18,404 bases of DNA, from the IMG/VR virus record IMGVR_UViG_3300029713_000154; one strand, 5' to 3'. This document shows positions 2,935 to 18,238 of this stretch, in pieces (within the stretch, counting starts at the first letter, position 1; the number at the start of each line of letters is the position of its first letter). The notes under the pieces are model-generated. The model worked only from the letters and a program-made list of their open reading frames with translations. It ran no database searches and was not told the origin of the DNA. The stretch is from a virus. Taxonomy: Duplodnaviria > Heunggongvirae > Uroviricota > Caudoviricetes. The position numbers were made by a program, and so were the translations under genes.

Positions 2935-3545
2935 GCTTGCCAGCCTGTTGAATAATCGTAGTCGAGCACCGCCTGAATATCGTCCAGAGCTTCCACCGCC
3001 GCGATATGGTGCTGGGCATTGGCGAACAGGCGCATATCGTGATCCATTGTTACCGATTCAAACTGGGCGGCGATCTCGTTGGTTAACTCGATCAGACCGT
3101 TATTTTTAGTTTTCCACATTAACCCTGGAGGGATTTTTTTCTCCGCTCCCATTTTTGTGAGTGAGAGCTGTTGGATACGGCTGTTTGTATCACTGTGGAA
3201 GTGATGGTTGTTGATGATGATGTAATCGGTTGTGACGTAATCCCGTTTGGATTTTATTCTTCTTATTATATCCGCTTTTATTTCTGAAATAAATTTAAGC
3301 ATTGAATCTGTATCAACTATCCATTCTCCTTTTTTTAGTTTGTGAAATCTATCTGGTGGTGGCGTAGAGATAAAGGATAAATCTTCACAGTTAATCCAAA
3401 TTGGGATATTAGCTTTCGCATATGTCTGCCATTGCTGATCAGTTATTTCAACTAAATGTTCTACTTTAGGATAGTTGTAGTGTTCTGTATCGATCCAGTC
3501 CAGAACGATAAATGTTTCAGGATCAAAACAAGCATATTTTGTCAT
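2931..3545 (-). CDS. tail fibre assembly chaperone (Tfa/DUF4376-like)
   Basis: 204-aa ORF starting 6 nt downstream of the fibre gene. Central ...HHFHSDTNSRIQQLSL... and C-terminal ...AAVEALDDIQAVLDYDYSTGW resemble fibre-assembly proteins. The position is canonical for P2 G / Mu U. Confidence 0.75.
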   Translation of the reverse strand: MTKYACFDPETFIVLDWIDTEHYNYPKVEHLVEITDQQWQTYAKANIPIWINCEDLSFISTPPPDRFHKLKKGEWIVDTDSMLKFISEIKADIIRRIKSKRDYVTTDYIIINNHHFHSDTNSRIQQLSLTKMGAEKKIPPGLMWKTKNNGLIELTNEIAAQFESVTMDHDMRLFANAQHHIAAVEALDDIQAVLDYDYSTGWQA

Positions 3546-3551
3546 TTTTAA

Positions 3552-5378
3552 TTACCATGATATTTTTACGAAGCCAGAGGCACCTTTTGTTCCGCTAGTA
3601 TTGCCTAAATTTGTTAACTCATTATTTTTATATTGAAAAGGAGGTAAATAAGATCCCCCAGCTCCTCCAGAACCATAACCTGTTGCTGCTGTTGGCTTTG
3701 CCATTACTGCTTTTTTTCCACCATTACTTAGGTTTTCTGTAATAACAGTACCTGAAGCCCCTCCCTTTCCATATATAGAATTTTCACCATTCTTTCCAGG
3801 ATAAAATTCTGCAGATGACGGTATTGCATTTGGTGGAGTACCTTTAGGATCGTCACTGAATTTTATATAAGGCTGCGTAGTGTTAGAGTGATAAATGTTA
3901 TATCCTCCATGGCCACCTTTTGCAGTTAGATTAGAAAACGAAGAGTCTCCACCATCAAAGCTTTTTTGTGTTGTCTCTGTTTTATCATACGAATACTTTA
4001 TTTGTGAAACAGGTGGATTGTTCCAAAAAGGACCTCCATTACCTCCAGCTCCGATCTTTACTGAAAAATGCTGGCCTGGTGCCACGTTTAAGTAATCAAC
4101 AATCAATTCTCCTGCATTACCTCCGCAGGCTTCATAATGTGATGATTGTGCTCCTCCGGCCCCCCCACCTCCGCCGCCCATAATTTCCACAAATAATATT
4201 GTTACGCCCTCAGGAACTATAAATGTTCCATTTGTAGTATAAAAACTAGTGTGGGTATGATTAGCTGGAGCTGCAGTTTTTGCCTTATCCATTGCCGCCT
4301 TCACCGCGCTCGGTGTCGCCGCCTCCGTCGTACTGTTGCTATCCGTCGCGTTATTAAGCTTCACAATCCCTTTTTGCGACAGGGTGCCGTCTGGAACACC
4401 CGTAATCTGTCCCCATGGGTGAGTATGGTTTCCCGCAGCCTTACTATTCGCCAGGTCATATGCCGCCTTCACCGCGCTCGGTGTCGCCGCCTCCGTCGTA
4501 CTGTTGCTATTGGTCGCGTTATTAAGTTTCACAATCCCTTTTTGTGTCAGGGTACCGTCAGGAATACTCGTAATCTGCCCCCAGGGGTGCGTATGACTAC
4601 CCGCAGCCTTACTATTCGCCAGGTCATACGCCGCCTTCACTGCGCTCGGTGTCGCCGCCTCCGTCGTACTGTTGCTGTCTGTCGCGTTATTAAGCTTCAC
4701 AATCCCTTTTTGTGTCAGCGTACCATCTGGTATATCAGTAATCTGACTCCAGGTATGACGATGATTTCGAGCCTCAATCATTGCCGCTTTCACCGCTTTT
4801 GGCGTAGCCGCTTTGGTTTCGTCATCACTGTCAGTGGCGTTACTCAACTGTGTAAAGCCTTTTTGCGTTAACGTAGCATCAGGATGATTAGTCGAACGCT
4901 CATGTTCATCCAGTTGTGAATCAACATAATCCCGTGTTGCCAGTACAATACTGGGGTCAACGGTGAGTGTTACCGCAGTCGTGTTGGAAACTTCCATAAT
5001 CAGGCGAATGCAAACTTGCTTACCGCTGCCGCCGGGTAATAGTGGTTTATACGACTCCGGGAATTTACCGATAGCAATGAGTTCACCATCGGTATCAAAA
5101 ACGCCGACTTCACGTACATACCAGCCGCCGATATTTTCGGGCAGCACGAGTTCCGCAATTAACCAGTTAGGGTTATTGGGTGCAACTGTTAATGTATTTA
5201 AATCACCGCGCCATACTTCATGGCGTAATTTAGTTTGGCTGACGGTGGGTTCATAATATTGTCCTCCGCTGTCACCAACAGCCATTTTTTGTAGATGAAG
5301 CTGTTTTTTATCCGCCAGAGCATTGGCAATTTTTGCCATTCCCCTGTCGGTGAGTAGAGTATAAAACTCATTGTCCAT
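3552..5378 (-). CDS. tail fibre protein (P2 gpH-type N-terminus, repeat shaft, glycine-rich C-terminal tip)
   Basis: 608 aa in three parts:
- N-terminal ~150 aa (MDNEFYTLLTDRGMAKIANA...GGWYVREVGVFD...GKFPESYKP) look like the P2 H-type baseplate-attachment domain.
- aa ~169-376 are tandem fibre repeats (TLTQKGIVKLNNATDS..AATPSAVKAA..HTHPW).
- aa ~377-608 are Gly-rich (FIVPEGVTILFVEIMGGGGGGAGG...GFVKISW). Confidence 0.9.
   Translation of the reverse strand: MDNEFYTLLTDRGMAKIANALADKKQLHLQKMAVGDSGGQYYEPTVSQTKLRHEVWRGDLNTLTVAPNNPNWLIAELVLPENIGGWYVREVGVFDTDGELIAIGKFPESYKPLLPGGSGKQVCIRLIMEVSNTTAVTLTVDPSIVLATRDYVDSQLDEHERSTNHPDATLTQKGFTQLSNATDSDDETKAATPKAVKAAMIEARNHRHTWSQITDIPDGTLTQKGIVKLNNATDSNSTTEAATPSAVKAAYDLANSKAAGSHTHPWGQITSIPDGTLTQKGIVKLNNATNSNSTTEAATPSAVKAAYDLANSKAAGNHTHPWGQITGVPDGTLSQKGIVKLNNATDSNSTTEAATPSAVKAAMDKAKTAAPANHTHTSFYTTNGTFIVPEGVTILFVEIMGGGGGGAGGAQSSHYEACGGNAGELIVDYLNVAPGQHFSVKIGAGGNGGPFWNNPPVSQIKYSYDKTETTQKSFDGGDSSFSNLTAKGGHGGYNIYHSNTTQPYIKFSDDPKGTPPNAIPSSAEFYPGKNGENSIYGKGGASGTVITENLSNGGKKAVMAKPTAATGYGSGGAGGSYLPPFQYKNNELTNLGNTSGTKGASGFVKISW
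4251..4874 (-). repeat. in-frame tandem repeats inside the fibre gene (168-bp period)
   Basis: The string GCCGCCTTCACCGCGCT, or a near-identical version, restarts at 4294, 4462 and 4630, giving a period of 168 bp (56 aa). A diverged 153-bp-offset copy starts at 4783. At protein level there are three near-identical copies plus diverged first and last copies. Confidence 0.9.
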
Positions 5379-6028: not shown

Positions 6029-7121
6029 TCGTGACGTCTATTGCGGTGCATTCCGCCCACTCATGCGCCTGCAAAATACGTTTTGTAGGCATATTCAGCG
6101 CAACGTCATAGACGCCATCGACCTGTAACACTTTGATTATCTGGTTTGGCACAATGTCCTGCCCCAGATGTTTCTGCCGCTGTTGCGTCCAGAGGCTAAT
6201 CGCTTTACGCGCTGCAGCCAGCGTTGTCTCCTGATCGGCGGTGGTAAACAGCGTTAGCTGCGCACGGATCTCATATGGCACTCGAAGAGCGCATTTCGCA
6301 CTCACTTTGTCGGTCAGCGGACGTTTTTTCTCCTTGCTAACCTCCTGTTCAATTTGCGCGAGCAGTTCTATTCCCGGCAGTCCGTTCAGAGTTAGCGGGT
6401 AGATCTCCACGCAGCCTTCTGGCAATCCCTCGTCCGGCCCCAGTACTGCAACGTCAATAATCGACTGGCTAACAGAAAGCGTATGAAAGCGGTAGGCACC
6501 ATAGCTGCCCGCATTACTAAAGCTTTCTGGTGCCAGTTGGATACGCTGGCGCAATGCGTCATCGCTCTCTTCACCGCAGCCGCCCGTTGACGCAGTCAGG
6601 TTGGTTACGTTGATGTCATAATGACCAATCCTGTCGACCAGTGCGCTAATTTGTGCAGGCTGCCAGCCGTTACCCTGTTCACCTGCTGCGAGGCTGGTGG
6701 CAGGAACGGCGATATGCAAACTCCTGGCCGGAAGCAGAACATCTTCATCGGTGGCGAACATCACGCTATCAGAGGCACTGGCCCGCGTTCCCTGGGGAAT
6801 CAGGATATTGCTGGTATACGCGCTGACGACCGAAAACTGCAACGTCGTTTTTGCCGGCTGCGCAGGCAAACGGTGAACGCCCACCAACTCCCCTAAATAA
6901 TCCAGCATTGGCGCGCGGGAATACGCGACCAGGTTCTGTTTCGCCGCTTCCTGAATGGCGATGCGTACAAGGTTTTCACGATAGGCAAACAGGTCGATGA
7001 GCAACCGCTCAGCCTGTGCCGGATAGAGTTTTTTACCGCTGGCATCTTCGTATTGCGCAATCATCTCACTGGTAATTTGCGCAGGATCGCGGTCAATAAA
7101 ATTGGGTTCGGCTATCGCCAT
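6006..7121 (-). CDS. baseplate wedge protein, gpJ (Baseplate_J) family
   Basis: 371-aa ORF overlapping gpW by 10 nt. The N-terminus MAIAEPNFIDRDPAQITSEMIAQYEDASGKKLYPAQAERLLIDLFAYRE is typical of P2 J / Mu gp47-type proteins. Confidence 0.9.
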   Translation of the reverse strand: MAIAEPNFIDRDPAQITSEMIAQYEDASGKKLYPAQAERLLIDLFAYRENLVRIAIQEAAKQNLVAYSRAPMLDYLGELVGVHRLPAQPAKTTLQFSVVSAYTSNILIPQGTRASASDSVMFATDEDVLLPARSLHIAVPATSLAAGEQGNGWQPAQISALVDRIGHYDINVTNLTASTGGCGEESDDALRQRIQLAPESFSNAGSYGAYRFHTLSVSQSIIDVAVLGPDEGLPEGCVEIYPLTLNGLPGIELLAQIEQEVSKEKKRPLTDKVSAKCALRVPYEIRAQLTLFTTADQETTLAAARKAISLWTQQRQKHLGQDIVPNQIIKVLQVDGVYDVALNMPTKRILQAHEWAECTAIDVTIAGVSDG

Positions 7122-7471
7122 AACACCTCCGTTGAGTTGATAACGCCGTCAGCGGCGCGCCATTGCACACGTAACGTCAGATGTTCGCCGTCGATTACTG
7201 GTGTCACCTTCAGCAACCGACAGCGCGGCTCCCACTGGCGGATGGCTTCCACCGACTCCCGTACCACATGCGGAATTGCCCGCTCGATGGGGTAATCGAT
7301 GTAGTGCCACAAGTTGCTGCCAAACAGCGGTCTGTGGGGATCACTGCCGCGCGGTGTGCGCAGAATGATGTGTATTGCCTGGTGAATATCATCCAGTCCG
7401 CAGACGTATTCTTCAGGCCGCTGCAAGGCCGGTTGCCAGTGCAGCGTTGAGGGTCGTGTTTTTGTGTTCAT
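7112..7471 (-). CDS. baseplate wedge protein, gpW/T4 gp25 family
   Basis: 119 aa. The motif LRTPRGSDPHRPLFGSNLWHYIDYP...AIRQWEPR is characteristic of the GPW_gp25 family. No Shine-Dalgarno sequence precedes the ATG (GAAAATACCCTCATG). Confidence 0.9.
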   Translation of the reverse strand: MNTKTRPSTLHWQPALQRPEEYVCGLDDIHQAIHIILRTPRGSDPHRPLFGSNLWHYIDYPIERAIPHVVRESVEAIRQWEPRCRLLKVTPVIDGEHLTLRVQWRAADGVINSTEVLWR

Positions 7472-7477
7472 GAGGGT

Positions 7478-7534
7478 ATTTTCGCCCTGAACGGGCTGTG
7501 GCGATATTAAAGCGATTTAGAAAACTGATTGATT
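7478..7534 (-). promoter_or_regulatory. candidate activator-dependent late promoter (copy 2 of a conserved module)
   Basis: The minus-strand 31-mer AATCAATCAGTTTTCTAAATCGCTTTAATAT (7534 down to 7504) matches the 31-mer at 16094-16064 at 22/31 positions, ungapped. CTAAATC (7520-7514) is followed by exactly 30 nt and then GAAAAT (7483-7478). There is no -35 hexamer. Confidence 0.4.
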
Positions 7535-7564
7535 AAAAAGAGAAAACCCGCCATCAGGCGGGTT
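7531..7564 (-). terminator. rho-independent terminator between gpV and gpW
   Basis: Minus strand: AACCCGCC TGAT GGCGGGTT followed by TTCTCTTTTTAATC. It starts 5 nt after the gpV stop. Confidence 0.65.
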
Positions 7565-7569
7565 AAACG

Positions 7570-8271
7570 TCAGTGTGTATGGTGGTTGGAGTTGCCACCG
7601 CTGTCCTGCAATGCGCCGCTGGCCTGAACGTTGCCGATCACGTTGACATTGCCAGTTATCGTGGCGGCGTTACCGATGCCTCCACTTCCTGCCATCCCGC
7701 CAAGCCAGGTGAGTTTTTTCATTACCGTGACATTGCCAGTAAAGGTGCTCATGGGCGCATCTACCGTCACTGCTGCCGCTTTAACATCGACCTTAGTGGC
7801 GTCGATGCTGACATCGGTCGCTTTAATATCGACGGTATCGGAAGTCACGGTGACCTGTTGGGCTTTAATCTCAACGTTGGGTGATGTCAGGCGGGTACTG
7901 TCGATAACCTCAATCACGATTTTCTCGATACCGCCGTTAATCGTCAGCTGGTGGGTGCTGCGGTCATATTCAAACGCTGCGCCATCAGAAAACTGGACGT
8001 AACGTTTATCGCGCGAGGCCACAGGCGCGGTGTCAACCGTAGAATAAACTGCGCCCAGCACCACGCCATCTTCACCGTTATTGTCCAGCAGAACTTCCAC
8101 TTGCTCGCCCATATCCGGTAGCCAGTAGTCTTTATTGTCCTGGGAATTGCGTTGAAGTACCGCAAGCCAGTTGCTCTTCAGATTGTCACACTCCGGAAGC
8201 GTGACTCGCACCCGAACGCTGGTTTCGTCAATATCGCTGATAATCCCCGTTTGACGGGTTACTCCTTTCAT
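7570..8271 (-). CDS. baseplate central spike, gpV family
   Basis: 233 aa. The N-terminal OB-like region (GIISDIDETSVRVRVTLPECDNLKSNWLAVLQ) is followed by a repetitive beta-helix-like V/T/D-rich segment and a His-rich tip (NSNHHTH). Confidence 0.85.
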   Translation of the reverse strand: MKGVTRQTGIISDIDETSVRVRVTLPECDNLKSNWLAVLQRNSQDNKDYWLPDMGEQVEVLLDNNGEDGVVLGAVYSTVDTAPVASRDKRYVQFSDGAAFEYDRSTHQLTINGGIEKIVIEVIDSTRLTSPNVEIKAQQVTVTSDTVDIKATDVSIDATKVDVKAAAVTVDAPMSTFTGNVTVMKKLTWLGGMAGSGGIGNAATITGNVNVIGNVQASGALQDSGGNSNHHTH

Positions 8272-8280
8272 ATTTCCTCC

Positions 8281-9321
8281 TTACTGGCTGGTCGCTGGCC
8301 CGCGTGACACGTCGATTTCAGTGGTATAGCCGCTGCGCACAAAACTGTGAGTCGATTTATCAATCAGCCACTGACCGGAAAGCACGCCAAAATCGGTCAG
8401 TTCAATTTTATTGCCCGCCGTCAGTTCCGGGCAGCCCATCATCCTGAGCGTTCCGGTTTGTTGATATTCGTTGTGGCTGTCGAGCGCGGCGTTGGCCTTT
8501 GCCTGTGCCGCGCCAACGTCCGGCGCCCGACTGTTCAGTTTTAGCGTGTCGGCACTGGTGCCGACTCCACGGGTAGACGGTTTTTGCTGGCTGTCGTGGG
8601 TGTAGATAACCAGTTCTTTTTTCTTACTATTTTGATGCTGTACGGTGGCATTTTTGTAGATACGGTTAATGGTATCTTTGAAGGTGAAATGCGAAACGTC
8701 TTTGCGGTCGATCGTTTTTACCGGCGCCAGGCAGCGCAGCGTGGGTAAATGCGAAAAAATCAGTTCTTTGGTGGTCACCTTTACCGCATAGCCATATTCG
8801 CTGGCCAGGCGCTTGAGAAATCCGACATCGGTTTCACCATACTGCGTTACCCGGTCGATGGTGAGCGGCTCGATTTTGCCCACCAGTTTCAGACCGTGCG
8901 TTTGGGCGATACGGCTGGCGATAGCCGAAAGCGTCGTTTCTTCAAAGCCCTGGCTGTTACGGGTACGCAGCGCCTGATTGACGGAAGTGGCGATGCCATC
9001 AATATTTACCGTAGAAGGTGGCGCTGAAATATCAATTTTATCAATAATATACTGACCACAATCGAGCAGCTTTTCCCCCTGATAACCCATATGCAGCGCC
9101 AGCGTATCGCCTTTGCCGGGATACCACTCTTTTATCCAGCGTCCATCGGTGTCATCCAGTGTAATCGCGATGGTATCTGACTCGTTTTTGATGCTGTCGT
9201 GGTAACTGATGCTGGTGACATAGGGTGTGATGTCATAAGTGATATCTTTATGCCCATACCAGAGGGTAAAAATGGGCGTGAGTGTGGCAAAGACGCCACC
9301 AGTTACGCTTATCTCAGCCAT
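8281..9321 (-). CDS. baseplate hub, P2 gpD (late control D/VgrG-N-like) family
   Basis: 346-aa ORF directly after gpX, overlapping it by 13 nt. Size and order (U-X-D-V) match the P2 tail module. Confidence 0.85.
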   Translation of the reverse strand: MAEISVTGGVFATLTPIFTLWYGHKDITYDITPYVTSISYHDSIKNESDTIAITLDDTDGRWIKEWYPGKGDTLALHMGYQGEKLLDCGQYIIDKIDISAPPSTVNIDGIATSVNQALRTRNSQGFEETTLSAIASRIAQTHGLKLVGKIEPLTIDRVTQYGETDVGFLKRLASEYGYAVKVTTKELIFSHLPTLRCLAPVKTIDRKDVSHFTFKDTINRIYKNATVQHQNSKKKELVIYTHDSQQKPSTRGVGTSADTLKLNSRAPDVGAAQAKANAALDSHNEYQQTGTLRMMGCPELTAGNKIELTDFGVLSGQWLIDKSTHSFVRSGYTTEIDVSRGPATSQ

Positions 9322-10471: not shown

Positions 10472-12846
10472 CAGGCATACCCCCGGCGCTGTTGTTGCGC
10501 CATTACGTCGTTAATCATTCTTTCAAGTTCGCGTTTACTCATCGTCAACACGTTCTGAATCTCTTTAGTGGTGTTTTGTCCGTTACCCTGCACGGTAATC
10601 TGTGGCGAAAAATTCACCTGAACTTTTCCAGAGGAACGGGAAGGTAGCGTCGCCGGTTTGGTTACGGATTTACCAGGTAAAGAGGCCAATGCGGGTTTGG
10701 CGGCTGTATTTTTTGCCGCAGGTGCCGATGGCGGCGTTGTCGTTTTACTGGATGGCGCGAGTTGTTTCCCCACCGGAGGCGTTAAAATCGCACCGGCAAC
10801 GCCTGGAACAACGCTCGCGGGGGAGACGGATGCGGTATTAGTCGTGCTTGTAATAGCTGTAGCCGATCCTTCTGTACTAATACCCATCGTGGTTTTTAGC
10901 CAGTCTGGGATGACGTTTTTGACCTGATCAATAATGCCTTTCAGAGCGGGGAAGGCATTCATTATGCCGTCGGCCAGGCTAGCCAGAAGATTGCTGCCGA
11001 ACTCGCTAAAACTCGCAGGCATTTCAACACCAAACCAATTCATCACACTGGAAAAGGCGCTATAGAACAACTCCAGCGGCGACCAGTCGAGAATTAACCG
11101 ACAAATTTCTGCAATGCCGCCGTCAAAGGCCGTGGTGATACGTTGCCAGATGGTAGAAAAGAACCTGGAGATAGGCTCCCAGTTGCGATAAATCAGATAA
11201 GCAGCGCCCGCAATCGCAGTGATGACCAGACCAATGGGATTCATCAATAAAACCCTACCCAACCAGAAGACGGTCTGACCTGCCTGTTTCAGTGCGCCAA
11301 TCAGGCCACGACCAAGCAGTTGCGTTAGCCATTTTGCACCGCCACCCAATGACTTAACCGCTGATAGCATCTTACTTGCCCCGCCTGTGAGTGCCAGACT
11401 TGCCCTGACTTTCAGGAAGATATCGACCAGACGAATAAACGGCGAGGCGATGAAGTTCGCGCCCAGTTTTAAAACATTCAGCGCGCCGTTAAACAGCCAA
11501 ATCGCCCCGACGATTTTCGCAATGTTTTGCACCAGTGCCGGGTGCTCACGTAGCCAGGCGCTGAACTGGCGAACAACCGGCGTAAGGCTTTGTGCCAGCT
11601 CGCCAATCAGCGGCATTAATTGCAAGCCAATGCTGAGCCATAAATCATTTAACGCCAGCTGTAACGCTTTAGTCTGTTCAATGGGCGAGGCCATTTGCGC
11701 AGAAAAGTCGGCATCAATCAGATTCTTGCTGCTGGCTTGCATGGCAGAGGCTTTTAACTGGCGATATTCCTCCATATTCGCCAGCATAGGTGCCAGGAAT
11801 TCCACAGTTTGCGCATCGCCGAACATTTCGCCCAGATTAAATTGCGTCACCATCGATTGCAGCGCATTGCTGCGAGCAGATAAATCTTCAATCTGCATAG
11901 TGCGTTTGAAGGTGCCGAGGATCGCCGGATTCATCTTCTCAAGCTGCATTTGCACGATATGAGTCATGGCTTCGCTAACACCCATACCGTTTTGCTGATG
12001 CTCAAGCAGAGAGCCTTGCAGATCAACGCCCTGGCTGGCGAACCAGTTATCGGTTTTTTTCGAAAAGGTGGTTTGCAGAAAGTGGTCGAAATTCTCCGCC
12101 GCCGCACTGGCGCTGGCCCCGTTTTTCATGGCGATCTGCATGATGGCGGTCAGTTCAGCCATACCTTCCAGACCCTGAGCGCCGGTTTTACCTGCAAATT
12201 TCTCTATCCACTGCGTTTGTTCGGCAACGGCAGGCCCACCGCTTTTGCTAATGCCATACATCATGTTTTGCGTGGCGTGGAAATTTTCCGGGGCAATATT
12301 CAATCGATCATGAGTCGCGAGCGCGGCATTCGCCCACGTTTCAGCACTTTCGCGCGTGGCGGTGGCAGCTTTGGCGATCTCCGGCATATAACGGTTGAGA
12401 TCCTGCATCGACGACAAATTGCCTTCGATCAGCGTTTGGGCTGCGTTCTGTAAGGTGGTCTGCTGCTGGTTAAAATCCATGCTCCAGTCGCGCAGATTAA
12501 GGCTGAGCGTCTCGCGGGTTGTAGCATTCATCCCACCTTTGGTCGCCATATTGACCATGTTGTCCTGGAACTCATATGGCAACTTCCAGTCGGGGGCTTC
12601 AACATTGAATACCTTGCTAAATTGCCCGGCAAATGTTTGGGTTTTCTCCATTAGATCAGCGCGGTTCCGGCTATTTTCCTCCAGGCGGAGAGCAGAATCG
12701 GCAAGTTGCTGCGTTAGTTTGATTACTGTCGCTTGCTGAGAAGAGAGAGCTAACAAAGTTCTGGCGTTGAGTGAGCCGTAACGGGCTATTGCCTGCGTCA
12801 ACGTCTCATTACGCGCCTGAAGCTGGGTAATAATATCGTTGGCCAA
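10471..12846 (-). CDS. tail tape measure protein
   Basis: 791 aa, helical and Ala/Gln-rich, with central hydrophobic segments and a Pro/Ser/Thr-rich tail. It sits after the chaperone pair. The only start after the upstream in-frame TAA is TTG at 12846, with AAGAGA upstream. Confidence 0.9.
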   Translation of the reverse strand: MANDIITQLQARNETLTQAIARYGSLNARTLLALSSQQATVIKLTQQLADSALRLEENSRNRADLMEKTQTFAGQFSKVFNVEAPDWKLPYEFQDNMVNMATKGGMNATTRETLSLNLRDWSMDFNQQQTTLQNAAQTLIEGNLSSMQDLNRYMPEIAKAATATRESAETWANAALATHDRLNIAPENFHATQNMMYGISKSGGPAVAEQTQWIEKFAGKTGAQGLEGMAELTAIMQIAMKNGASASAAAENFDHFLQTTFSKKTDNWFASQGVDLQGSLLEHQQNGMGVSEAMTHIVQMQLEKMNPAILGTFKRTMQIEDLSARSNALQSMVTQFNLGEMFGDAQTVEFLAPMLANMEEYRQLKASAMQASSKNLIDADFSAQMASPIEQTKALQLALNDLWLSIGLQLMPLIGELAQSLTPVVRQFSAWLREHPALVQNIAKIVGAIWLFNGALNVLKLGANFIASPFIRLVDIFLKVRASLALTGGASKMLSAVKSLGGGAKWLTQLLGRGLIGALKQAGQTVFWLGRVLLMNPIGLVITAIAGAAYLIYRNWEPISRFFSTIWQRITTAFDGGIAEICRLILDWSPLELFYSAFSSVMNWFGVEMPASFSEFGSNLLASLADGIMNAFPALKGIIDQVKNVIPDWLKTTMGISTEGSATAITSTTNTASVSPASVVPGVAGAILTPPVGKQLAPSSKTTTPPSAPAAKNTAAKPALASLPGKSVTKPATLPSRSSGKVQVNFSPQITVQGNGQNTTKEIQNVLTMSKRELERMINDVMAQQQRRGYA

Positions 12847-15991: not shown

Positions 15992-16037
15992 ATGAGGTGT
16001 ACCTTAATTACCGCTCACTTCGTTATCGTTGAGATGT

Positions 16038-16094
16038 ATTATGAAGCAGTGAAGGTGAAGAATCTTTTAATGTGATTTAGAGAAAAAATTGAAT
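16038..16094 (-). promoter_or_regulatory. candidate activator-dependent late promoter (copy 1 of a conserved module)
   Basis: Minus-strand 31-mer ATTCAATTTTTTCTCTAAATCACATTAAAAG (16094 down to 16064). CTAAATC (16080-16074) is followed by exactly 30 nt and then CATAAT (16043-16038). The -35 position reads AAGATT, a poor match, as expected for Mor/C-type activated promoters. Confidence 0.4.
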
Positions 16095-16097
16095 GGC

Positions 16098-16133
16098 TAT
16101 AAAAAATCCCCACACTTACGTAAAGGTGGGGAT
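16098..16133 (-). terminator. rho-independent terminator between the lysis cassette and the tail genes
   Basis: Minus strand: ATCCCCAC, a 12-nt loop, GTGGGGAT, then TTTTTATAG. The hairpin begins 4 nt after the stop of the 104-aa gene. Confidence 0.7.
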
Positions 16134-17360: not shown

Positions 17361-17656
17361 ACGATATCTCCTGATAAGTGAGCGTTTAGTGTCGTCAGAA
17401 CCCGCCAGTGAAGAATGAAAAAAGCTTTAATAAATAAGTTTAAAAAATAGATTCTCTATAAATGAACATGCCCGCTAATAAATCGACTCAGCAATTAAAG
17501 AGCAAACGGTGACCTGGCGAATAAGCGCGTCATTATGCAGGGAAAAGATGATGGTGGATCGTAGGAATAGTCGATAGTTATTTGATTTTTAAAGTTTGTT
17601 TAAGAAAGTCAGCGACTGTGAGGGAAACGATCTTTTTACACTACAGGTAAAAATAA

Positions 17657-17676
17657 TACTGTATGTGCATACAGTA
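17657..17676. promoter_or_regulatory. LexA (SOS) operator
   Basis: TACTGTATGTGCATACAGTA is a perfect CTGT-N8-ACAG palindrome. It differs at one central base from the E. coli recA operator as I recall it (TACTGTATGAGCATACAGTA). Flanking hexamers sit at recA-like positions on both strands:
- Minus strand: ACGATA (17680-17675) and TATTAT (17658-17653).
- Plus strand: ATAATA (17653-17658) and TATCGT (17675-17680). Confidence 0.8.
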
Positions 17677-17896: not shown

Positions 17897-18238
17897 ATGA
17901 TACGAAAATCAAAAGAGATGGCCCGGACACCGGAGATCATTAACGACCTGGCTTTTCATGCATCGCAAGTTCTGATTGAAAGCATCAATCTCGACAGTTC
18001 ATCGGCAGAAAATGTGGGTTTTGCCATTGCCGACCGAATGATGCGTAACTGGGGCGGACAAAGCATTTATTTCCCTAAGGGGATCTCCGGACGAGCATCG
18101 GAGCGTGACTACCAAATCTATAGCGAGTGCGATGGGCGCAACTACGCCGAATTAGCGAAGAAATATAATCTGACGCTGCAATGGATTTATAAGATAGTCA
18201 AACGTGTACATACGGAGAAGCAGCAGAGTCGTATGTAG
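17897..18238 (+). CDS. Mor/C-family late transcription activator
   Basis: 113 aa with GGAG 7 nt upstream of the ATG. The C-terminal half NWGGQSIYFPKGISGRASERDYQIYSECDGRNYAELAKKYNLTLQWIYKIVKR matches the Mor-family pattern (G..IYIPK ... R...I...F.G.N..ELA.KY.LS...IY.I). Confidence 0.85.
   Translation: MIRKSKEMARTPEIINDLAFHASQVLIESINLDSSSAENVGFAIADRMMRNWGGQSIYFPKGISGRASERDYQIYSECDGRNYAELAKKYNLTLQWIYKIVKRVHTEKQQSRM

Follow-up and report, generated by a model that had tools for sequence, protein, structure and literature searches.

A putative terminator-promoter junction between the baseplate genes V and W of an enterobacterial phage tail island and its counterparts in the Bcepmuvirus lineage

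Introduction

The activator-dependent promoters of phage Mu are transcribed with sigma-70 and have a -10 hexamer but no -35 hexamer; an activator-binding dyad at -43.5 replaces the latter, and RNA polymerase's alpha subunit binds, by its C-terminal domain (alpha-CTD), A/T-rich DNA just upstream of this dyad (PMC4390567, PMC2582627). Tetrameric binding was reported in a recent preprint (10.1101/2025.05.02.651988). Two other phage promoters are of interest for genes that begin without a leader. At PRM of phage lambda, an activator-dependent promoter with a weak -35, six nucleotides separate the hexamer from the start codon of cI (TAGATT-TAACGT-ATG). In phage P2, the activator-dependent late promoter PV heads a baseplate and fiber operon, and the RefSeq record annotates the start of this V operon at the first base of V, which is a leaderless precedent for a baseplate operon. 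Here we analyze the gap between the baseplate genes gpV and gpW in IMG/VR record IMGVR_UViG_3300029713_000154, a stretch of 18,404 nucleotides (the window) that carries a phage tail island with all of its tail genes on the minus strand.

An earlier note on this DNA had taken P2 as the reference, in which V, W, J, I, H, and G form one operon, and had proposed that a terminator and a promoter split V from W in the window. The island indeed splits the two genes. In P2 they overlap (V ends at 10943 and W starts at 10940), with the promoter upstream of V, whereas the window has a 98-nucleotide (nt) gap with a terminator and a promoter module in place of a single P2-like V-W-J-I-H-G operon. P2 itself was not the right comparison: the tail genes of the island are closer to those of Bcepmuvirus (BcepMu, phiE255, and PhiKM), and the P2 late promoter is served by the zinc-finger activator Ogr from a site at about -55 whose sequence is unrelated, in front of an operon that starts at V and not at W. 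The best explanation, to which we assign a probability of about 0.68, is that the terminator-promoter junction splits the tail genes into two units, both under the control of the Mor/C-family activator encoded in the island. The narrower reading of the V-W gap as a promoter plus a terminator seems to us about as probable, and the strict leaderlessness of the gpW mRNA somewhat less so. In our judgment the interpretation given in the earlier note is largely right, and the feature is best described as a late promoter of the Mu type that depends on an activator, belongs to a different specificity class, and came to the island from Bcepmuvirus.

Results

Organization of the V-W gap

The gap and the two genes that flank it are composed as follows, in the order in which the tail strand is read.

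Positions 7570 to 8271, minus strand: gpV, the baseplate spike and last gene of the upstream unit (Pfam Phage_base_V, 5e-8; "phage baseplate assembly protein V" in the PGAP annotation).
Positions 7535 to 7564, minus strand: intrinsic terminator T2, with stem AACCCGCC (7564-7557), loop TGAT, second arm GGCGGGTT (7552-7545), and T-tract TTCTCTTTTT (7544-7535).
Positions 7525 to 7534, minus strand: A/T-rich block AATCAATCAG, at about -54 to -63, with an AATCAA that is conserved in enteric islands.
Positions 7503 to 7524, minus strand: the 22-nt late-promoter element TTTTCTAAATCGCTTTAATATC, with the dyad TAAATC-GCTTTA (7519-7508) centered between 7514 and 7513.
Positions 7484 to 7502, minus strand: 19-nt spacer, variable in sequence and fixed in length, with small hairpin 1, GCCC (7496-7493)/GGGC (7487-7484).
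Positions 7478 to 7483, minus strand: the -10-like hexamer GAAAAT, without variation among the 18 distinct enteric sequences, with nAnnAT as the consensus of the whole family.
Positions 7472 to 7477, minus strand: ACCCTC, six mostly G+C nucleotides that link the hexamer to the ATG; their CCCT (7476-7473) and the AGGG at 7488-7485 are the arms of hairpin 2, which encloses the hexamer.
Positions 7112 to 7471, minus strand: gpW, the gp25-like baseplate wedge (Pfam GPW_gp25) and first gene of the W-J-I-fiber unit.

The gpV stop codon (TGA, 7572-7570) is followed by the five nucleotides CGTTT and then by the stem of T2. The stem has eight pairs, six of them G-C, and T2 ranks second among the terminator-like sites that a terminator scan found in the window; its hairpin appears in the minimum-free-energy fold and the centroid fold alike. 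T2 has the makeup of an intrinsic terminator, with a G+C-rich stem-loop and a U-tract downstream of a stop codon. Rfam gave no match at gathering thresholds for the junction, and its two weak sub-threshold matches, both on the plus strand over the terminator region, scored far below the gathering scores.

The T-tract is followed by a 31-mer, AATCAATCAGTTTTCTAAATCGCTTTAATAT (7534-7504), that is identical without gaps to positions 16094-16064 at 22 of 31 places, a hand count that agrees with the earlier note. At both sites CTAAATC-N30 leads to a -10-like hexamer, GAAAAT (7483-7478) at gpW and CATAAT (16043-16038) at the other copy. The positions and sequences reported in the earlier note were all correct on the minus strand, as was its strong terminator 5 nt after gpV; its CTAAATC core, however, is only a part of what is conserved, namely, the dyad TAAA(N4)TTTA with its 3' flank (TTTCCTAAAGCGCTTTAATATC). 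We propose that the element at 7503-7524 is the binding site of a Mor homologue; if transcription starts at the A of the gpW ATG, the center of the dyad lies at -42.5. In Salmonella the corresponding sequence, TTAAAGC-GCTTTAA, is a perfect 14-bp palindrome. The A/T-rich block at 7525-7534 may be an alpha-CTD/UP-like region, or else its TCAAT-N3-TTTT, 13 bp upstream, may be what is left of a second site for the activator, like the one at the holin gene.

The hexamer GAAAAT agrees with the -10 consensus at four of six positions, A2 and T6 included. A -35 hexamer is absent: at the -35 position (17-bp spacing) stands TATCGC, with one match in six. An alternative -10, the TAATAT within the element (CTTTAATATC), would give a 35-nt structured leader; it was rejected on two counts, as its equivalents at gp37 and holin (TAAAAG and TTTTCG) are not -10-like and the hexamer 19 nt downstream is conserved at every site.

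Conservation of the promoter module

Homologous loci came from three sources: a scan of a genome collection, which yielded four loci only (Phytobacter, Superficieibacter, Dryocola, and a metagenome-assembled genome of Burkholderiaceae); Salmonella; and 76 IMG/VR contigs, anchored on gpW rather than on the motif, which supplied the diversity. The resulting conservation set holds 47 distinct homologous sequences with gpW 48 to 100% identical, of which 18 distinct sequences form the enteric subset. One contig (L028, IMGVR_UViG_3300050189_000002) was left out of all statistics as an expression-vector contaminant; it has a T7 promoter, a lac operator, and a pET ribosome-binding site directly 5' of a Salmonella-type gpW.

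The search in related islands that the earlier note had suggested bore out both the element and its spacing, which are kept throughout the set: from the end of the element to the ATG there are 31 nt in 37 of the 47 sequences and 32 nt in the other 10. Pairwise identity of the element is 88% among the enteric sequences and 70% across the whole family. For the enteric sequences, the hexamer is 100% identical, the 6 nt before the ATG 74%, and the spacer 48%, compared with 79% at third codon positions of gpW; element and hexamer are hence more conserved than synonymous positions, and the spacer is less conserved. Such a pattern is the footprint that two functional DNA elements leave when their distances to one another and to the start codon are fixed. 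The enteric plan 5' of gpW reads ATCAA..TTTC(C/T)TAAA(G/T)C(G/A)CTTTAATATC, 19 variable bases, GAAAAT, 6 bases, ATG. Loci with gpW in the range of 48 to 64% identity follow the same plan, for example with CCTTAAAGGCCTTTAATATC-N19-CATGAT-AGCCGC-ATG in one (L047) and TTTTCTAAAACGCTTTAAAAGC..CACTAT..ATG in another (L080). In the group with gpW 48 to 55% identical, a sigma-54 reading of TTTGGCAC was discarded, there being no TTGC at the correct spacing.

Could the likeness of the two 31-mers be a chance resemblance of A/T-rich sequences, with the gap made up of a terminator and an untranslated spacer and gpW expressed by read-through? Taken alone, neither the 22/31 identity nor the 11-mer core is significant, the latter having 12 matches in the window at up to two mismatches where 8.7 are expected. 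A weight matrix built from the gpW-upstream regions of the other loci, however, gives the gpW promoter (P_W) 33.4 bits and the gp37 site 21.9 bits, the only two sites in the window above 20 bits, and 20 shuffles of the window reached a maximum of about 13. Against chance stand also the conservation above that of synonymous sites and the near-fixed length of 31 to 32 nt; in addition, the module is present in phages without the terminator, and a strong terminator just upstream would block the read-through that gpW would need. We consider this explanation very improbable and, on the conservation and weight-matrix statistics, have set it aside.

Variation at the V-W junction

The stem of T2 is kept in 15 distinct enteric versions as ACCCGCC-loop-GGCGGG with a T-tract, the loops being free to vary. 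The phage relatives have no terminator between the gpV stop codon and the element, which are 1 nt apart in PhiKM, 0 nt in BcepMu, and 10 and 17 nt in two contigs (L047 and L049); in a further contig without a terminator (L045), the gpV stop codon lies inside the late-promoter element. The junctions of BcepMu (gp48-gp49), phiE255, PhiKM, and KP12 are orthologous to that of the island and have the same element, spacing, hexamer, and ATG without a Shine-Dalgarno sequence, as well as an activator of the same family; they differ in the missing terminator (0 to 17 nt from V stop to element) and in a stronger stem around the hexamer. The V-W promoter thus appears to be ancestral in the Bcepmuvirus lineage, where no terminator precedes it.

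The same junction carries insertions in other hosts. In Salmonella it holds gtrABC (STM4204-4206) with a REP-like hairpin repeated on both flanks. In the Salmonella Infantis contig L001 (5785-9109), this O-antigen glucosylation operon lies directly upstream of the gpW promoter module between two copies of the hairpin of ~40 bp (..GGCCCGGTAAGCGCAGAAGCGCCACCGGGCAAA..), and Salmonella contig L029 has a single REP-like copy and no gtr. In Dryocola (L004, 11795-12000), the gpV terminator is interrupted behind its 5' arm by an ERIC copy, and REP-type repeats are found in terminator-promoter junctions of Phytobacter (L002, 3160-3240 and 11800-11900). Many Burkholderia-type loci have V-W inserts of 0.26 to 0.72 kb, one of them with a reverse-strand open reading frame (ORF). 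The terminator seems to have been added in the islands only, at a place where insertions are frequent.

Whether a reverse-strand gene or the 3.3-kb gtr operon separates V from W, the promoter module stays directly on gpW, and gpW must therefore be expressible without gpV. Presumably, the junction tolerates cargo such as the O-antigen-modifying gtr operon of Salmonella because gpW has a promoter of its own. The V-W boundary resembles the moron insertion sites of the Hendrix type in carrying unrelated inserts in different hosts (gtrABC, ERIC or REP copies, and the 0.26- to 0.72-kb inserts); the window itself differs from such sites, having the terminator and no insert.

The contigs of a group with high G+C content (L071-L081, gpW 48 to 55% identical) have a tail-fiber gene and a chaperone gene, not gpV, directly upstream of gpW, and the promoter module is still attached. 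The spacer of these contigs has a G+C hairpin of 5 to 6 bp followed by TTTGG, which together look like a weak terminator inside the promoter spacer.

The same grammar at gp37, at holin, and in phages

Three features of the window extend the comparison beyond gpW.

Positions 16101 to 16131, minus strand: terminator T1 after the lysis cassette, CCCCAC...GTGGGG and a T-run.
Positions 16038 to 16084, minus strand: sister promoter upstream of gp37, with element TTCTCTAAATCACATTAAAAGA, 19 nt, CATAAT, and a leader of ~40 nt with a Shine-Dalgarno sequence; 21.9 bits.
Positions 17388 to 17442, minus strand: TAAAG-CTT-TTTT-N24-GACACT ahead of holin, in all probability a third promoter; a further and better dyad copy, TAAACTTATTTA, lies 13 bp upstream.

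The window therefore has three late-promoter sites, all on the tail strand, and since the same grammar stands upstream of holin, gp37, and gpW, the proposal of three units (lysis, sheath to spike, and wedge plus fiber) held. The accompanying idea that one terminator-promoter cassette had been duplicated did not. The terminator stems are unrelated, so that the cassettes are not copies of one another, and the gp37 element of Dryocola is identical to the element of the PhiKM head-gene promoter at 19 of 22 positions (hand count), which argues that the gp37 promoter is not a copy of P_W. Most simply, the gp37 promoter would be the old phage head promoter, left in place after deletion of the head module; the leader of the PhiKM head promoter has ..ATAACG.. 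in common with the island leaders. The T1 stems covary across genera (CCCCAC/GTGGGG, CCCCG.C/G.CGGGG, and CCCTGC/GCAGGG).

In five genera, the gp37 promoters read TTCTCTAAAG..ATTAAAAG-N20-nAnAAT, followed by a leader of 40 to 70 nt with a Shine-Dalgarno sequence. The gp37 leaders (window 15992-16037 and L001-L004) also have a conserved block, GAACGATAACGAAG, and then small hairpins that differ in sequence between genera, such as GAGAGA-ATATTA-TCTCTC in Salmonella; they may form a leader structure. The holin promoters of the five genera read ATTTTTTAAA(G/C)TTATTTATTAAAG, which contains TAAAG-N3-TTTT-N24-(G/C)A(T/C)ACT in the same register and, 13 bp upstream of it, another dyad copy (spacing counted by hand). 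A register pattern devised after the sites had been seen, TAAAB-N3-WTTH-N24-NANNNT, has four matches in the window, all on the tail strand, where 0.30 are expected. The fourth match (3256-3297, minus strand) lies inside a 204-amino-acid (aa) DUF4376 ORF, ~320 nt upstream of a 151-aa ORF, scores below 10 bits, and is probably a chance match in A/T-rich fiber-accessory DNA.

In the complete genome of PhiKM, the top four matrix matches (23 to 25.5 bits) are all intergenic and on the late strand: one is ahead of the head gene at 5114, whose placement is that of Mu I, and the others are ahead of the tail chaperone, gpW, and the lysis genes. A fifth, weaker element of 16.6 bits (L083, 30842-30863, minus strand), correctly spaced from CATCAT, lies upstream of a DNA adenine (Dam) methylase gene and recalls the C-dependent mom promoter of Mu. 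The set of five closely parallels Mu Plys, PI, PP, and Pmom. In BcepMu (L082, 18808-18864), a late-promoter element upstream of gp32 is followed by GCCC-GATGAT-GGGC-gcc-ATG; the annotated start of gp32 at 18850 lies inside the hexamer, and the in-frame ATG at 18862 fits a second leaderless start.

A candidate activator and its likely link to SOS

Positions 17897 to 18238, plus strand: Mor/C-family transcription activator (Pfam Mor, 2e-37; PDB 1rr7 [Mor], 7e-8; PDB 9l0x [C], 3.5e-5).
Positions 17657 to 17676, no strand assigned: LexA box TACTGTATGCACATACAGTA between the activator gene and holin, near consensus and conserved in E. coli, Salmonella, Phytobacter, Superficieibacter, and Dryocola.

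The gene at 17897-18238, which the earlier note had not linked to the module, is the obvious candidate for the regulator of the three promoters. PhiKM and BcepMu each have a single late activator, to which its product of 113 aa is 44 and 48% identical, respectively, and the C-terminal helix SLQWIYKI is conserved among the three. Wherever a complete phage or island was examined, the Mor/C gene and the promoter element occurred together; this was so for the window, Salmonella, Phytobacter, Superficieibacter, Dryocola, BcepMu, and PhiKM.

This co-occurrence bears on the possibility that the promoter is real but its dyad is read by something other than a Mor protein, be it IHF or Fis, another island factor, or an UP-element effect alone. 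The element is A/T-rich, the ATCAA block just upstream resembles part of the IHF consensus, and the dyad is unlike the published architecture of the Mu Mor site. Besides accompanying the Mor/C gene without exception, however, the element is conserved from E. coli to Burkholderia, between which host factors differ, sits exactly at the -35-replacing position used by Mor and C, and is conserved together with the putative recognition helix of the activator. A non-Mor factor is therefore unlikely, and a Mor-type activator remains our preferred reader of the dyad.

Two promoter-like sequences overlap the LexA box, TTTACA-16-TACAGT on the tail strand and, possibly, TAAAAT on the activator strand, and the consensus favors a LexA-overlapped promoter on the tail strand. 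Since the activator gene adjoins this conserved box, a cascade from SOS to the activator and on to the three promoters is likely. About 55 nt downstream of the LexA box, a block at 17582-17603 (TTAAACAAACTTTAAAAATCAA) is conserved in four of five genera; apart from an additional base that separates the half-sites, it is similar to the late-promoter dyad, and it has no -10-like hexamer at the usual distance.

The start of gpW

The ATG at 7471 is the first possible start codon after an in-frame TAA, and all 62 loci that could be anchored at residue 1 have ATG at this place. GUG and UUG starts work poorly without a leader. The 20 nt upstream of the ATG (TTCAGGGCGAAAATACCCTC) contain no GGAG, GAGG, or AGGA at a usable distance, and a Shine-Dalgarno sequence is found in none of the 47 distinct homologous sequences, including Burkholderia-type loci without a purine-rich 5' arm; with a -10 at -12 to -7, such a sequence cannot coexist, as the hexamer fills its position. 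The suggestion that gpW is leaderless or nearly so has gained strength, since in 47 of 47 sequences just 6 nt (rarely 7) lie between the hexamer and an ATG without a Shine-Dalgarno sequence, which is the geometry of lambda PRM-cI (TAGATT-TAACGT-ATG versus GAAAAT-ACCCTC-ATG). The A of CATG stands 7 nt after GAAAAT and is a purine preceded by a pyrimidine. We predict that the gpW mRNA starts at the A of the ATG at 7471 and is leaderless. gpW and gpJ overlap by 10 nt, and translational coupling of gpJ is thus possible.

The comparison with lambda has its limits: cI is a regulatory gene and not the head of a structural operon, it has no flanking inverted repeat, and its start is proven, whereas that of gpW is inferred. 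The first 13 nt of gpW (ATGAACACAAAAA, 7459-7471) and the start of lambda cI (ATGAGCACAAAAA, L085) are identical at 12 positions, and P2 gene V also begins ATGAACAC; the likeness could be a coincidence or could mean that 5' ends rich in A/CA and free of structure are preferred.

Two other ways of recruiting the ribosome were considered and dismissed. A distant Shine-Dalgarno sequence in the G-rich 5' arm (AGGG or GAGG, 13 to 14 nt from the ATG) does not fit Burkholderia-type loci, which have GCGGC, GCGAC, or CGAC there. A split ribosome-binding site joined by a hairpin is known for T4 gene 25; at gpW there is no Shine-Dalgarno-like sequence 5' of the stem, and the stem abuts the AUG.

A covarying inverted repeat around the hexamer

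Complementary arms that covary lie just upstream of the hexamer (about -17 to -13) and just before the ATG (-5 to -1). There are more than 10 different arm pairs, among them AGGG/CCCT (window), AGGC/GCCT, GAGGC/GCCTC, GGGAC/GTCCC, GGGGT/ACCCC, GGGGGG/CCCCCC, GGGGGC/GCCCCC (PhiKM), GCGGC/GCCGC (BcepMu), and GCGAC/GTCGC. At least 4 bp can form in 27 of 40 distinct sequences, compared with a mean of 13.0 and a maximum of 22 when the arms were swapped in 2,000 permutations, and the mean stem length is 3.8, versus 2.39 ± 0.21 in permutations; the relatedness of the sequences inflates this statistic, although the set clearly contains many double changes that arose independently. Of 14 late promoters with a leader, just 1 has a stem of this kind. 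The promoter of BcepMu gp32, by contrast, shows the same stem arrangement, which suggests that the pairing goes with ATG-abutting promoters in general.

These observations can be cited for an explanation at the level of RNA, in which hexamer and inverted repeat act mainly in RNA read from upstream and a stem-loop at the AUG controls the translation or processing of gpW by masking the AUG, by forming a processing site, or through re-initiation after gpV; gpW would then not be leaderless, or not only. In its favor are also the stem energies, which are strongest where gpV abuts the module (mean of -10.2 kcal/mol; n = 6) and weaker where there is a terminator (-7.9) or an insert (-5.9), and the pairing that reaches over the AUG in BcepMu and several Burkholderia-type loci. 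As the principal function of these bases it is nonetheless improbable. A -10-like hexamer lies 19 nt after the element at every other late promoter, with no ATG following there, so that these bases serve the promoter in any case. The Salmonella loci with the 3.3-kb gtr insert and the loci with a reverse-strand gene, in which gpW cannot be coupled to gpV, keep the module all the same. In the window the stem is weak (4 bp; z = -1.5 for the local fold) and competes with another small hairpin in the spacer, it is absent from the group with gpW 48 to 55% identical, and a comparison of G-T with A-C wobble pairs showed no strand preference.

The RNA-level and promoter readings are compatible with each other, and alongside the promoter that we prefer, the likeliest role of the stem is in read-through RNA. 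We entertain, as a tentative idea, that the inverted repeat is an RNA device tied to leaderless expression, which masks the AUG, or mimics an adjacent 5' end, in transcripts that read through from gpV.

The tail island and its relatives

The window is an E. coli phage tail island next to lysC. Several complete E. coli chromosomes are 100% identical to the window over the stretch tested (7000-8400), and the V-W stretch is present at a coverage of at least 80% in 195 of 5,426 complete E. coli genomes (~3.6%). The PGAP annotation has an identical set of genes and an identical gpW start. Read along the tail strand, the island begins with the 3' end of lysC, the activator gene on the plus strand (17897-18238), and an A/T-rich intergenic region of 536 bp. 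The lysis cassette contains a holin, an SLT transglycosylase, and a 104-aa membrane protein; gp37, a 65-aa ORF, sheath, tube, chaperone, tape measure, gpU-like, gpX, gpD, and gpV genes follow in this order, and gpW (7112-7471), gpJ, gpI, the fiber gene, and two accessory ORFs complete the island. It contains no head genes.

Salmonella LT2 STM4196-STM4219 is a homologue of the island. The identity of gpW to its closest phage relatives is ~60% for BcepMu gp49 and phiE255 and ~69% for E. coli PhiKM and Klebsiella KP12. By these relationships, the island appears to descend from a BcepMu-like transposable phage of the Bcepmuvirus lineage and not from P2.

Discussion

We propose that the V-W gap works as follows. 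Transcripts from the gp37/sheath promoter would stop at the intrinsic terminator (7564-7535). An oligomer of the Mor homologue would bind the dyad near -42.5 and recruit sigma-70 RNA polymerase, as Mor does at Mu Pm and C at the Mu late promoters, and the T-tract of the terminator together with the AATCAA block would occupy the place where the alpha-CTD binds at Pm. Initiation at the A of the gpW start codon would produce a leaderless W-J-I-fiber mRNA, like those of lambda cI from PRM and of the P2 V operon, and gpJ and the later genes would be translated by coupling. In evolutionary terms, the promoter would be ancestral to Bcepmuvirus and the terminator would have been added in the enteric tail-only islands, making the wedge and fiber unit depend solely on P_W and shielding it from read-through. 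DNA damage, through cleavage of LexA, would lead to synthesis of the activator and hence to activity of the three promoters.

Like Mu Pm, Plys, PI, PP, and Pmom, the island promoters are of the sigma-70 type and come with a small Mor/C activator encoded in the element, a -10 without a -35, a dyad ~43 bp upstream of the putative start in the place of the -35, and A/T-rich DNA just upstream. The site is common to several late units, as in Mu: one internal to the tail and baseplate genes (compare Mu PP), one for lysis, one for the head genes, and, in PhiKM, one at the methylase (compare mom). The differences are equally clear. The Mu Mor site consists of 5-bp repeats split by a G/C-rich hexamer, whereas the island has a dyad of 12 to 14 bp, TAAAnC-GnTTTA, with a 3' flank. 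The island has one activator, Mu a cascade of Mor and then C; the internal tail promoter stands at V-W (equivalent to Mu Q-V) and not before P; and in the island the first gene has no leader and the promoter is preceded by an intrinsic terminator. Taken together, the comparison points to a distinct specificity class within the Mu-type mechanism.

Several points weigh against this explanation. In the searchable literature, we found no mapped start site, footprint, or expression datum for any member of the promoter family. As a -10 the hexamer is weak: it agrees with the consensus at four of six positions in the window, and many members of the family have A2, A5, and T6 alone. Recognition by a Mor homologue is an extrapolation, as the A/T dyad differs from the Mu Mor site. 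The inverted repeat around the hexamer that abuts the ATG is not predicted by a simple promoter model and hints at a role at the RNA level. With the matrix derived from gpW, the site near holin stays under 10 bits, the search pattern that ties it to the other two was built with the sites in hand, and the LexA-overlapping promoter has candidates on both the tail strand and the activator strand.

Three things appear to be new: the grammar of the promoters in the Bcepmuvirus lineage, a geometry with the promoter abutting the ATG that is deeply conserved, and the covarying stem. Our literature search on the locus tags of the island, on BcepMu promoters, and on E. coli tailocins returned no description of these promoters and no data on them, and we found no published description of the late-promoter grammar that is defined here. 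If the idea of an RNA device is true, the synthesis of wedge and fiber would be tied to initiation at P_W rather than to upstream transcription, and the same 20 bases would be a promoter in DNA and a translational gate in RNA. Few leaderless mRNAs are listed for Gammaproteobacteria and Betaproteobacteria, and the gpW transcript is a deeply conserved candidate to join them, one that would head a structural operon.

In summary, a tail island that is widespread in enterobacteria (E. coli, Salmonella, Phytobacter, Superficieibacter, and Dryocola) and yet unstudied now has a testable regulatory map, with one presumably SOS-linked activator of the Mor type and three candidate promoters, two of which have a terminator ahead of them. 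For the engineering of tailocins, the map identifies elements that would set the dosage of wedge and fiber apart from that of sheath and tube.

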